Shown piece by piece: positions 64 to 1,910 of a stretch of 28,673 bases of DNA. The first letter of the stretch is position 1; each line of letters starts with the position of its first letter. A program made the translations under genes and the position numbers. The notes below the pieces were generated by a model that saw only the letters and a program-made list of their open reading frames with translations, searched no databases and was not told where the DNA came from. Source of the DNA: a virus. Lineage: Duplodnaviria > Caudoviricetes. The stretch spans positions 1 to 28,673 of IMG/VR virus record IMGVR_UViG_3300027805_000064; one strand, given 5' to 3'.

Positions 64-84
64 TGATGCTTGTGGTAGTCGCAA

Positions 85-297
85 TAGACAGGAACCCGAG
101 AGTCGGGTGATCCTTTTGAAAGGGAGCCTCTCGTTTATCTAGACTATGCCTGATGGCACCTGAGTCGCTTGCCCTGTTCACCTGATCTGCGGCGTCATCC
201 GACGTTGGCAGAGGGCTACTTGAAACTCACCCAGTTCGTCACGTTTATCCTACTTGGTCGGCTCAACCGCATAGAGGGCTGGGTTATGGCCCCGTGT
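85..297 (-). ncRNA. Candidate structured non-coding RNA, family unknown
   Basis: No ORF of 60 aa or more. Multiple nested helices: GGGGCC/GGCUCC, ACCCAG/CUGGGU, GCCCU/AGGGC, UCUGC/GCAGA, CGUC/GACG, GACU/AGUC, GUGCC/GGCAU, ACCCGA/UCGGGU. Extended -10 upstream and a terminator-like last hairpin. Confidence 0.55.
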
Positions 298-303
298 GAT
301 TGC

Positions 304-333
304 ACTTTATCATGGTTTACACTGATTGCGTAA
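304..333 (-). promoter_or_regulatory. Putative sigma70-type promoter for the candidate ncRNA
   Basis: Minus strand TTACGC (333-328), 18-nt spacer, TG-A-TAAAGT extended -10 (312-304). Confidence 0.4.
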
Positions 334-353
334 GTGCTAGTTCCCTATACAAT
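326..353 (+). promoter_or_regulatory. Putative sigma70-type promoter for terS, probably giving a leaderless mRNA
   Basis: TTGCGT (326-331), 16-nt spacer, TACAAT (348-353); ATG at 359 is only 5 nt downstream. Confidence 0.45.
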
Positions 354-358
354 GAGGT

Positions 359-661
359 ATGACCTATAAAGCGCCTGCTGTGTTGCCAAAGACTGAGTAC
401 CAGCGTCTTAAAGAGCTTAAGAAGATGCTGGTTGAGTCTCGCGGTGAGGCTGTCGTCAAGAAGGTTCTGGACATCGCAATGAACGATGACCACCCTCAAC
501 AGATGGCCGCTTTGAAGATGTGCATGGAAAGAGCATTGCCTGTCAGCTTGTTTGAAAAGACCAGTGCCCAGCGCAGTGCTGTCAACATCACCATCTCTGG
601 CATTGGTGTGTCTGTTAGCGATACTGTTGATATCCAGGACGTAGAACCAAAAGATGAGTGA
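359..661 (+). CDS. terS: Putative terminase small subunit
   Basis: 100-aa helical protein immediately upstream of and overlapping terL; assigned by synteny. Confidence 0.65.
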   Translation: MTYKAPAVLPKTEYQRLKELKKMLVESRGEAVVKKVLDIAMNDDHPQQMAALKMCMERALPVSLFEKTSAQRSAVNITISGIGVSVSDTVDIQDVEPKDE

Positions 662-1910
662 TCTGAACTTCTCTCTCCTACCTTGGCAGCAAGAGGTCTA
701 CGCAGACCCTACCCGGTTCAAAGTCATTGCTGCTGGCCGTAGGTGTGGGAAGAGCCGTCTTGCAGCCACCATGCTGATCATCGAGGGACTGCGCTGCCCT
801 CCTGGTTCAGCAGTGCTCTACGTCAGTCCTACTATGGGACAGTCTCGCCAGATCGTCTGGGATCTTCTGCTCGATCTTGGCAGAGAGATCATTCAGACCT
901 CCAACGTCAACAATCTAGACATCACACTGATCAACGGGGCCAGGATCTATGTCCGTGGTGCTGATCGACCTGATACCCTGCGCGGTGTGTCTCTGACCTT
1001 TGCTGTGCTGGACGAGGTTGCTGACATCAAGCCACAAGCATGGGAGCAGGTCATCCGAGCCTCTCTGTCCGACAAGAAAGGCAAAGCCATCTTCATTGGC
1101 ACTCCTAAAGGCAGGAACTGGTTTCACGACCTGTGGAAGCTGGGCCAAGAAGAGCAAGACAAGGACTGGAAGTCTTGGCACTTCACGACCAAAGACAACC
1201 CTCTGATCGACCCTGATGAGATCGAGTCTGCCAAGAAAACACTGTCCAGCTTTGCTTTCAAGCAAGAATACTTGGCGTCATTCTCAAATGCCGGGTCGGA
1301 TGTGTTTAAGGAAGAATGGATCAAGTACGGTGAAGAGCCTCAATACGGCTCCTACTTCATCGCTGTTGACTTGGCTGGTTTTGAGGAGGTTGCTAAACAG
1401 GCAGCTAATTCAAAGAAACGGCTCGACGAGTCAGCTATTGCTGTTGTCAAGGTCACTGATGATGGCAAGTGGTTCGTCAAAGAGATCATTCATGGGCGCT
1501 GGGACATCCGTGAAACGGCTACAAAGATTTTGATTGCCATGCGGGACTATCGGCCCACGAGCGTGGGGATTGAGCGGGGGGCACTGAAGAACGCTGTGCT
1601 GCCGTATTTGAGCGATTTAATGAGGAAGAACAACGTGTATTCACACATTGTTGACTTGACTCATGGGAACCGCAAGAAAACGGATAGAATCGTGTGGGCG
1701 TTGCAAGGCCGCTTTGAACACGGCAGAATTGTGCTCAATCAGGAAGAAGACTGGGACACTTTTGTAGACCAGCTTCTCATGTTCCCGGCTAGTGGGGTAC
1801 ATGATGACCTCCCTGACGCACTCAGTTACATCGATCAGATGGCAATAACGAGCTACTTCGAACAAGAAGAAAGCGACTGGGAGCCAATAGACGTTATAGC
1901 AGGGGTGTGA
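654..1910 (+). CDS. terL: Terminase large subunit
   Basis: Walker A AAGRRCGKS, Walker B FAVLDE, GTP coupling motif, RNase H-like nuclease motifs AVDLA and HDDLPDA. Confidence 0.97.
   Translation: MSDLNFSLLPWQQEVYADPTRFKVIAAGRRCGKSRLAATMLIIEGLRCPPGSAVLYVSPTMGQSRQIVWDLLLDLGREIIQTSNVNNLDITLINGARIYVRGADRPDTLRGVSLTFAVLDEVADIKPQAWEQVIRASLSDKKGKAIFIGTPKGRNWFHDLWKLGQEEQDKDWKSWHFTTKDNPLIDPDEIESAKKTLSSFAFKQEYLASFSNAGSDVFKEEWIKYGEEPQYGSYFIAVDLAGFEEVAKQAANSKKRLDESAIAVVKVTDDGKWFVKEIIHGRWDIRETATKILIAMRDYRPTSVGIERGALKNAVLPYLSDLMRKNNVYSHIVDLTHGNRKKTDRIVWALQGRFEHGRIVLNQEEDWDTFVDQLLMFPASGVHDDLPDALSYIDQMAITSYFEQEESDWEPIDVIAGV

Follow-up and report, generated by a model that had tools for sequence, protein, structure and literature searches.

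The window, the whole stretch of DNA that was analysed (28,673 nt; IMG/VR record IMGVR_UViG_3300027805_000064), is a 28.7-kb fragment of a tailed phage whose plus strand carries terL, portal, scaffold, major head and tail genes, while at the far end the minus strand encodes exonuclease and Sak-like genes. The RNA described here occupies a gene-free stretch ahead of the putative small terminase subunit gene (terS). Its immediate setting comprises the following features:

84..297, minus strand: gene of the structured non-coding RNA, with a predicted 5' end around 297-293 and a conserved 3' end around 85
304..312, minus strand: extended -10 element of the promoter (TG-A-TAAAGT), with TGATATAGT or similar sequences in relatives
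326..353, plus strand: divergent terS promoter-like site, TTGCGT at 326-331 and TACAAT at 348-353, a consensus match by reading
359..661, plus strand: putative terminase small subunit, labelled from its position before terL; neighbour of the RNA
654..1910, plus strand: terminase large subunit (PHROG 2, E 3.5e-48; PF03237); neighbour of the RNA

Profile searches placed the putative terS in no PHROGs family and no relevant Pfam family, and ARAGORN found 0 tRNA or tmRNA genes in the window. The two promoter sites stand back to back, and both the extended -10 at 304..312 and the terS site were absent from the output of a consensus promoter scanner. terS looks leaderless, with TACAAT (348-353) only 5 nt ahead of the ATG at 359, a pattern repeated in close relatives. 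A conserved element ending in a C-tract (a G-tract on the terS strand) lies at 1-60 of the window and in relatives (e.g. L008, L266, L305), 150-210 nt past the RNA. This element is kept in relatives without the RNA and is a candidate packaging or terminus site; in some relatives, DnaA-box-like 9-mers sit just past it. One locus has a tRNA gene (L180:584-655) some 120 nt further downstream, encoded on the strand opposite to the RNA.

An initial annotation had proposed a structured minus-strand RNA between about 297 and 85, in which a closing helix enclosed three domains. Every sequence segment it named was found in place and its boundaries held; the fold supported by homologues is a different one, with these parts:

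275..293, minus strand: hairpin P1 (GGGC/GCCC, 292-289/279-276) with the 9-nt loop L1, CAUAACCCA (288-280)
249..275, minus strand: P2 (UCUAU/GUAGG), a 2x2 purine-rich internal loop, P3 (GGU/ACC) and loop L3
241..249, minus strand: linker motif 1, GAUAAACGU
139..243, minus strand: P4 (GAC 240-238/GUC 144-142), extended to C243-G139 across two non-canonical pairs and enclosing the middle domain
160..234, minus strand: P5 (CUGGGU 234-229/ACUCAG 165-160), P6, P7, P7a and P7b
220-217/179-177, minus strand: AGUA/GAA loop in P6, presumably of the bulged-G type
146..159, minus strand: hairpin P8 (GUGCC-AUCA-GGCAU), of varying length across the family
133..141, minus strand: linker motif 2, UAGAUAAAC
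124..128, minus strand: 3' strand of pseudoknot PK2, GGCUC (128-124), with its partner GAGCC (264-260) in L3
112..123, minus strand: hairpin P10 (CCUU/AAGG), variable and seen by eye
93..108, minus strand: local hairpin P11 (ACCCGA/UCGGGU), whose 3' strand GGGUU (97-93) also pairs with AACCC (285-281) of L1 to form pseudoknot PK1

Across the family the RNA spans 130-178 nt from P1 through linker 2, plus a tail of 40-110 nt, giving about 200-250 nt overall. Extraction of 110 sequences at fixed offsets showed that almost all of them form P1, P2, P3 and P4, and that a single position can have as many as four pair types. All four positions of P1 were paired in 110/110 sequences, three of these positions with two-sided changes, and the helix formed in 63/63 clusters (80% identity). 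The pairs of P2 and P3 reached mutual-information z values of 8-13; their pairing was part of the membership filter for the 63-cluster set and not for the 110-sequence set. The three P4 pairs all formed in 57/63 clusters, with up to four pair types, and Watson-Crick variants of its extension occurred in 7/74 clusters. These variants show P4 extending as far as C in motif 1 and G in motif 2, so that the two AUAAA strands exit the same helix end on opposite sides. Among 30 diverse members, P1-P4 together with PK2 were 95.7% paired versus 74.7% in shuffles (0/500 as high), with two-sided changes in 15/19 pairs; since shuffles ignore relatedness, slid-register controls matter as well, and these were 31-59% paired in this set and in the close homologues described next. 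Covariation among related phages, whose absence the initial annotation had named as refuting its proposal, was found.

The middle domain (P5, P6, P7, P7a and P7b) was 92-100% paired in 29 close homologues, with two-sided change at every pair of P5, P7, P7a and P7b and only one-sided variation in P6; AGUA...GAAC recurred in 31/63 clusters. P10, drawn one pair too long, was 62% paired in the same homologues. An automatic best-complement search for P5 scored at least 5 in only 31/63 clusters and often chose a wrong partner where P5 has 4 bp. When loci were searched from the 5' hairpin alone, AUAAAC was present at linker 1 in 103/115 (variants in 12/115) and at linker 2, within a 70-215 nt span, in 114/115 (variant in 1/115). 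Invariance of both GAUAAAC motifs, our earlier reading, was partly circular: the first search patterns demanded them, and the motif-free search gave variants and a new subtype. Four other elements of earlier models were dropped. Helix P9, which joined the far tail to the bases that follow linker 2, was only 71.6% paired and gave way to PK2, which also replaced two distal P3 pairs after the mutual-information pass; a UGAGUY/RACUCA pairing was abandoned in favour of P5; and a G48-C164 pair closing a symmetric inter-linker loop failed, as members with A48 still have C164.

Two pseudoknots tie these parts together. For PK2, the lead pair between L3 and the segment behind linker 2 ranked fifth in mutual information (z 10.2, 100% canonical), and at least 5 bp formed in 63/63 clusters, compared with at least 4 bp in 339/3600 swaps. 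Because PK2 joins GAGCC (264-260) to GGCUC (128-124), the strand that the initial annotation used to close the RNA actually docks on L3. For PK1, an exact 4-nt complement of L1 was present in the 3' tail of 62/62 clusters, versus 509/2400 swaps between loop codes, and of 74/74 clusters in a larger set; six loop codes occur (ACCC 35, ACCA 10, AUCC 9, ACUC 6, ACCU 1, AGCC 1). The same tail strand may have a second option, as local pairing of at least three of the four PK1 tail bases was predicted in 52/62 representatives when the 3' domain was folded alone. Covariation thus supports a fold made of the 5' hairpin, the stalk of P2 and P3, a middle domain with branches, a pair of A-rich linkers (AUAAAC) and both pseudoknots, around which the outer hairpins are exchangeable.

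Parts of the originally proposed fold fared unequally. The local hairpins UCUGC/GCAGA, CGUC/GACG and GUGCC/GGCAU were supported by homologue pairing. The long-range helices GGGGCC/GGCUCC, ACCCAG/CUGGGU, GCCCU/AGGGC and GACU/AGUC, taken with the 3' hairpin, were 71.8% paired in 29 close homologues versus 71.5% when shuffled (87/500 shuffles as high), with only 2/26 pairs changed on both sides; the alanine-acceptor-like closing helix was broken at one pair in 18/29, and the strands of all four helices pair elsewhere. The 3' hairpin ACCCGA/UCGGGU was itself only 39% paired, in a gapped and out-of-register region of the alignment, yet it is plausible because folding of the 3' domain predicts the local pairing given above. 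Folding energy, proposed as a check, was no better than that of shuffles on the minus strand (z -0.77; 45/200 shuffles as good; plus strand z 0.18). It is uninformative for a pseudoknotted RNA, and since a single sequence folds no better than shuffles, it is covariation alone that establishes the RNA as real.

The minus strand was upheld by strand bias in 63 representatives: P2 and P4 contained 13 G-U versus 0 A-C pairs on that strand, and GNRA/UNCG loops numbered 30 against 7 on the plus strand. An extended -10 upstream of the first helix, another element of the initial annotation, is present at 312-304, and a -10-like hexamer lay 6-11 nt ahead of P1 in 21/24 cluster representatives versus 24/72 control windows, mostly with a TTG-type -35. 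Of 61 judged clusters, 37 had their own promoter, 18 followed the terminator-like hairpin of a separate small RNA and stood at the head of early genes, and 6 had neither. From these signals, the RNA is likely transcribed by the host sigma-70 polymerase. Two metatranscriptome runs from different studies each gave one contig within the limits of the RNA (130-283; 135-284), whereas two other runs gave contigs that began within the RNA and continued through the promoters to terS, and contigs of terL and portal had similar or greater depth than those of the RNA. The runs were found with sequence words of the RNA itself and the contigs carry no strand; this evidence is equivocal and at most a weak hint of expression.

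The possibility that the feature works as DNA (an origin, a packaging site or a single-strand signal) or stays untranscribed has to be weighed against these data. Many clusters have a G/C tract no more than about 270 nt downstream, and 9-mers resembling the DnaA-box consensus occur in the variable 3' hairpins of 22/62 clusters; yet the G/C tract remains in relatives without the RNA, and the strand-biased G-U pairs and GNRA/UNCG loops, the promoters at the first helix and the two pseudoknots all argue for an RNA, which makes a DNA element highly improbable. The 9-mers, often paired or inverted (e.g. L358, L377, L395, L402, L405, L449), suggest a dual use of the DNA.

The minus strand at 84..297 of the window is a member of a phage RNA family without an Rfam match. 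Pattern searches first used the GAUAAAC motif in its two copies as an anchor and afterwards nothing but the 5' hairpin; at least 592 loci were found and examined, and because these include repeat fetches of the same contig, clusters serve as the counting unit. A first filter retained at least 245 distinct sequences in at least 63 clusters, and a second filter, applied to a larger set and omitting most of one loop subtype, at least 288 in at least 74. We estimate about 440 matching stretches in the viral collection, and a search with terL gave a further view through 80 loci of 81-95% identity. Our own covariance model scored the window, which was in its training set, at 112 bits (125-293). MW202825.1 from Manatee Spring, the sole GenBank phage member found, reached 93 bits with a model whose training set did not include it. 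Copy number was one in every carrier record searched (5/5; 23/30 in a second set, the other seven being incomplete non-carriers). Habitat labels covered aquatic, riverine, freshwater, sediment and wastewater runs, a spring and one ocean-survey contig name. One member was carried by a phage-like contig of 31 kb in the bin of a Polynucleobacter genome (the RNA was found in only 1/151 Polynucleobacter genomes) and two more lay in Chloroflexota and Flavobacteriaceae bins; the other 30/33 genome hits were chance matches to the search pattern. A variant at L760:401-600 lacks nearly the whole middle domain between the linkers and is either a natural minimal form or a misassembly at a short repeat.

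Comparison with known RNAs returned no relatives. In Rfam 15, no match overlapped the RNA in positions 1-1000 of the window at E up to 10. Twenty loci, with member L072 among them, gave 0 gathering-score matches. A scan of 20 member loci at E up to 1 gave just one neighbouring tRNA and one chance match, and with E up to 0.5 there were three matches, all below threshold, in 15 loci. A tRNA or tmRNA identity was rejected given the broken closing helix and the ARAGORN result. Known ribozymes and group I/II intron cores gave no Rfam match, and the GACU/AGUC helix, which recalls P7 of group I introns, is not conserved. Fremin et al. 2023 mined the same source database, IMG/VR, for viral structured RNA candidates, some of them upstream of terminase genes; the models there, at 29-151 nt, are shorter than the present RNA (PMC10690425). 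A fragment of it may be listed in their supplement or in a closed-access paper, and no description surfaced among the titles and abstract beginnings covered by our literature search. Having failed every family test run, the RNA is, as judged by these comparisons, new as a class; the newness concerns the class and not the function. Strong covariation, an own promoter in 37/61 judged clusters, the lack of an Rfam hit and one copy per genome agree with its original description as a stand-alone structured phage RNA.

From its place beside terS, the initial annotation had suggested a role in packaging or late-gene control, and this was not supported by the survey of relatives. Of 80 terS slots, 17 contained the RNA, 47 were fully sequenced without it and 16 were not judged (17/64 judged), and the RNA was absent from 3/3 near-complete (98-100%) close relatives with 84-88% identical TerL. 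It also accompanies a second terminase family unrelated to that of the window (blastp best E 2.3) and lies elsewhere: MW202825.1 has it among early genes at a distance of about 3 kb from terL, in G012 it follows directly behind terL on the late strand, and in G013 it sits between rep and ssb-like genes, antisense inside their operon. A rule that the RNA always follows the early-gene strand is contradicted by G012. L072 has the terminase of the window, yet its RNA is 0.67-0.74 like those of phages of the other group and 0.45 like that of the window, a mismatch suggesting that the RNA has been exchanged between groups of phages. In 10 relatives the same terS slot is filled by three other conserved non-coding elements, as expected of a cargo site.

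These observations bear directly on a prohead RNA like that of phi29. The phi29 pRNA is essential, and its 45AACC48 pairs with 82GGUU85 between molecules (PMC2241910). The present RNA is of similar size, stands beside terS in the group of the window, and shares a 4-5 bp complementarity of two distant segments (AACCC/GGGUU) that resembles the phi29 pair; this covarying loop-to-tail pairing, seen in 62/62 clusters, is the only pRNA-like feature to survive. It differs in that the partner strand is the 3' tail and not a loop, and in being optional (47/64 slots and 3/3 near-complete relatives lack it), mobile between unrelated terminase families, and found away from packaging genes in phages with a two-subunit terminase. 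A packaging role is thus already largely refuted, and we give it almost no weight.

Other non-coding elements met in the survey deserve description. A second element of about 90-100 nt, composed of two hairpins with its own promoter-like site, occurs about 130-20 nt upstream of the RNA (L358, L370, L395, L403, L410, L419, L154, L117, L390, L414) and in the terS slot ahead of an HNH-like ORF (L002, L022, L024, L047). The loop of its hairpin 1 is complementary over 7-9 nt to the internal loop of hairpin 2, with a code that varies from phage to phage, and a terminator-like U-run closes hairpin 2; with no meaningful Rfam match, it looks like another undescribed RNA family. The terS slots of L013 and L057 hold a conserved non-coding element of about 450 nt with many hairpins, matched neither by Rfam nor by the RNA's own covariance model. 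A conserved element of about 75-100 nt closed by a 9-bp helix occupies the terS slot in another group, L053, L064, L066, L067 and L080 (no Rfam match among the loci scanned). Between the HNH-like ORF and the C-tract, L002, L024 and L047 carry a conserved non-coding stretch of about 250-300 nt with hairpins.

Genes next to the RNA vary among carriers, and no dedicated protein gene travels with it as in RNA-protein cassettes (retrons, OMEGA systems, type III toxin-antitoxin). No ORF was shared by all carriers and absent from non-carriers, among the ORFs of six carrier genomes and across nine carriers including the window fragment; with three non-carriers only and tblastn at E 1e-4, this comparison could miss a short or fast-evolving partner. 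An ORF of at least 55 codons starts within 31 nt of the tail in 8/68 clusters, and none does in 60/68, including that of the window. In 4/68 clusters, all of one lineage (L618-L677), the tail meets the Shine-Dalgarno-like site (GAGG/GAGA) of a helix-turn-helix (HTH) replication-initiator gene (PF13730 on a homologue), overlapping it 12-18 nt before the rep start; in some of these loci, a two-codon frame overlaps the rep start codon. We read this arrangement as local co-option or chance placement, because in other phages this rep gene and the RNA are oriented divergently or convergently.

The rep lineage speaks for a leader or switch acting in cis, in which competition between PK1 and P11 over the tail strand would control termination or translation of the gene that follows. 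In the leader of IncI plasmid repZ, a hairpin loop forms a pseudoknot that controls translation of the replication initiator. The RNA of the rep lineage is similar in that a hairpin loop pairs beside the ribosome-binding site of such a gene, and repZ pseudoknot control is named in two titles of the reference list of PMC4288162. The predicted local alternative pairing of the tail strand suits a switch, and the 18 terminator-led clusters at the head of early genes, together with the four rep-leader clusters, fit a cis role. The likeness is confined to 4/68 clusters, however, and the much larger conserved core has no IncI counterpart. No consistent 5' leader position was found (8/68 clusters, four of them rep), the orientation of the RNA to one and the same rep gene varies between phages (co-directional, divergent or convergent), and both pairings occupy the same bases, so that an on/off difference is not obvious. 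Such a switch therefore appears unlikely as the general function.

Self-assembly through PK1 and/or PK2 between molecules, giving an RNA-only ring or cage like those of GOLLD and ROOL, also ranks among the less likely readings. PMC12286853 reports that covarying kissing contacts in ROOL and GOLLD, first read as tertiary, proved intermolecular, and that ROOL is phage-borne, non-essential and without a known protein partner. The present RNA resembles ROOL in these last three respects and is, like both, ornate, pseudoknotted and without known function, with long-range contacts detected by covariation; PK1 links its two far ends, and the tail strand has a predicted local alternative. Covariation is nevertheless blind to whether pairing is intra- or intermolecular. 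GOLLD and ROOL (650-800+ nt) often lie near tRNA islands, whereas the RNA here, at about 200-250 nt, is a third of their size, differs in topology and has no Rfam match to either; neither a sequence-structure match nor a length of 600-900 nt was found.

The compact core raises the question of catalysis or ligand binding. In preQ1-I riboswitches, twister, HDV-like ribozymes and glmS, a compact pseudoknotted core is combined with A-rich linkers and variable peripheral stems, and small ribozymes are typically built around a double-pseudoknot core, with peripheral hairpins that vary. The RNA described here has the same general build, with invariant unpaired bases and rigid spacing; it differs in topology, in the lack of a constant downstream gene, and in giving no Rfam match (E up to 10 for the window, 1 for 20 members). 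A new ribozyme processing its own transcript or a host RNA is improbable on balance. The base before the first G is C in 18/18 members without their own promoter and could mark a processing site, but a pyrimidine is also found there in 35/37 promoter-type members and may be structural or a start-site feature; no Rfam ribozyme matched, and no splice junction or substrate-binding arm was seen. An A-rich strand entering a loop-closing pseudoknot is also a feature of small riboswitch aptamers. The RNA could accordingly sequester a small molecule in the manner of an aptamer, for instance a nucleotide signal in host immunity, with a pocket where linker 2, P3 and PK2 meet; the lack of a fixed downstream gene or protein partner and the optional cargo position would suit such a sponge. 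It matched no Rfam riboswitch, and no precedent surfaced in the titles and abstract beginnings covered, which leaves this reading quite doubtful.

We favor, at a probability of roughly 0.4, an optional stand-alone RNA, compact and rigid, that acts in trans as a decoy or inhibitor binding a host factor. The four rep-leader clusters, the terminator-led clusters and the predicted alternative pairing of the tail strand were weighed against it. A host factor is reached by elimination, because neither a phage protein partner nor a free guide-like strand is apparent. We infer each functional step of its action from the fold: PK2 would bring the segment that follows linker 2 back against the stalk of P2 and P3, and the AUAAA linkers, exiting the base of P4 on either side, would likely pack into neighboring minor grooves. 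PK1 would clamp the 5' hairpin to the 3' tail and so shield both RNA ends, and the conserved surface of the core may present a fixed three-dimensional shape read by a host protein. A bolder conjecture, which we regard as a long shot, is that this class is protein-free in its action, with the double-pseudoknot core and twin A-rich linkers as the active part, either a ribozyme or an aptamer for an immune signal, and that it serves as RNA-only counter-defence cargo swapped between unrelated phages.

Few structured phage RNA classes of this complexity are known, and GOLLD and ROOL yielded unexpected RNA-only assemblies. The present RNA is small enough to transcribe, probe and solve, and hundreds of variants fix its fold; close relatives without it are natural controls, and two covarying pseudoknots lend themselves to break-and-rescue tests. 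Binding of a host factor or signal would make it an RNA-based tool of host takeover or counter-defence; if catalytic, it would be a new ribozyme class.
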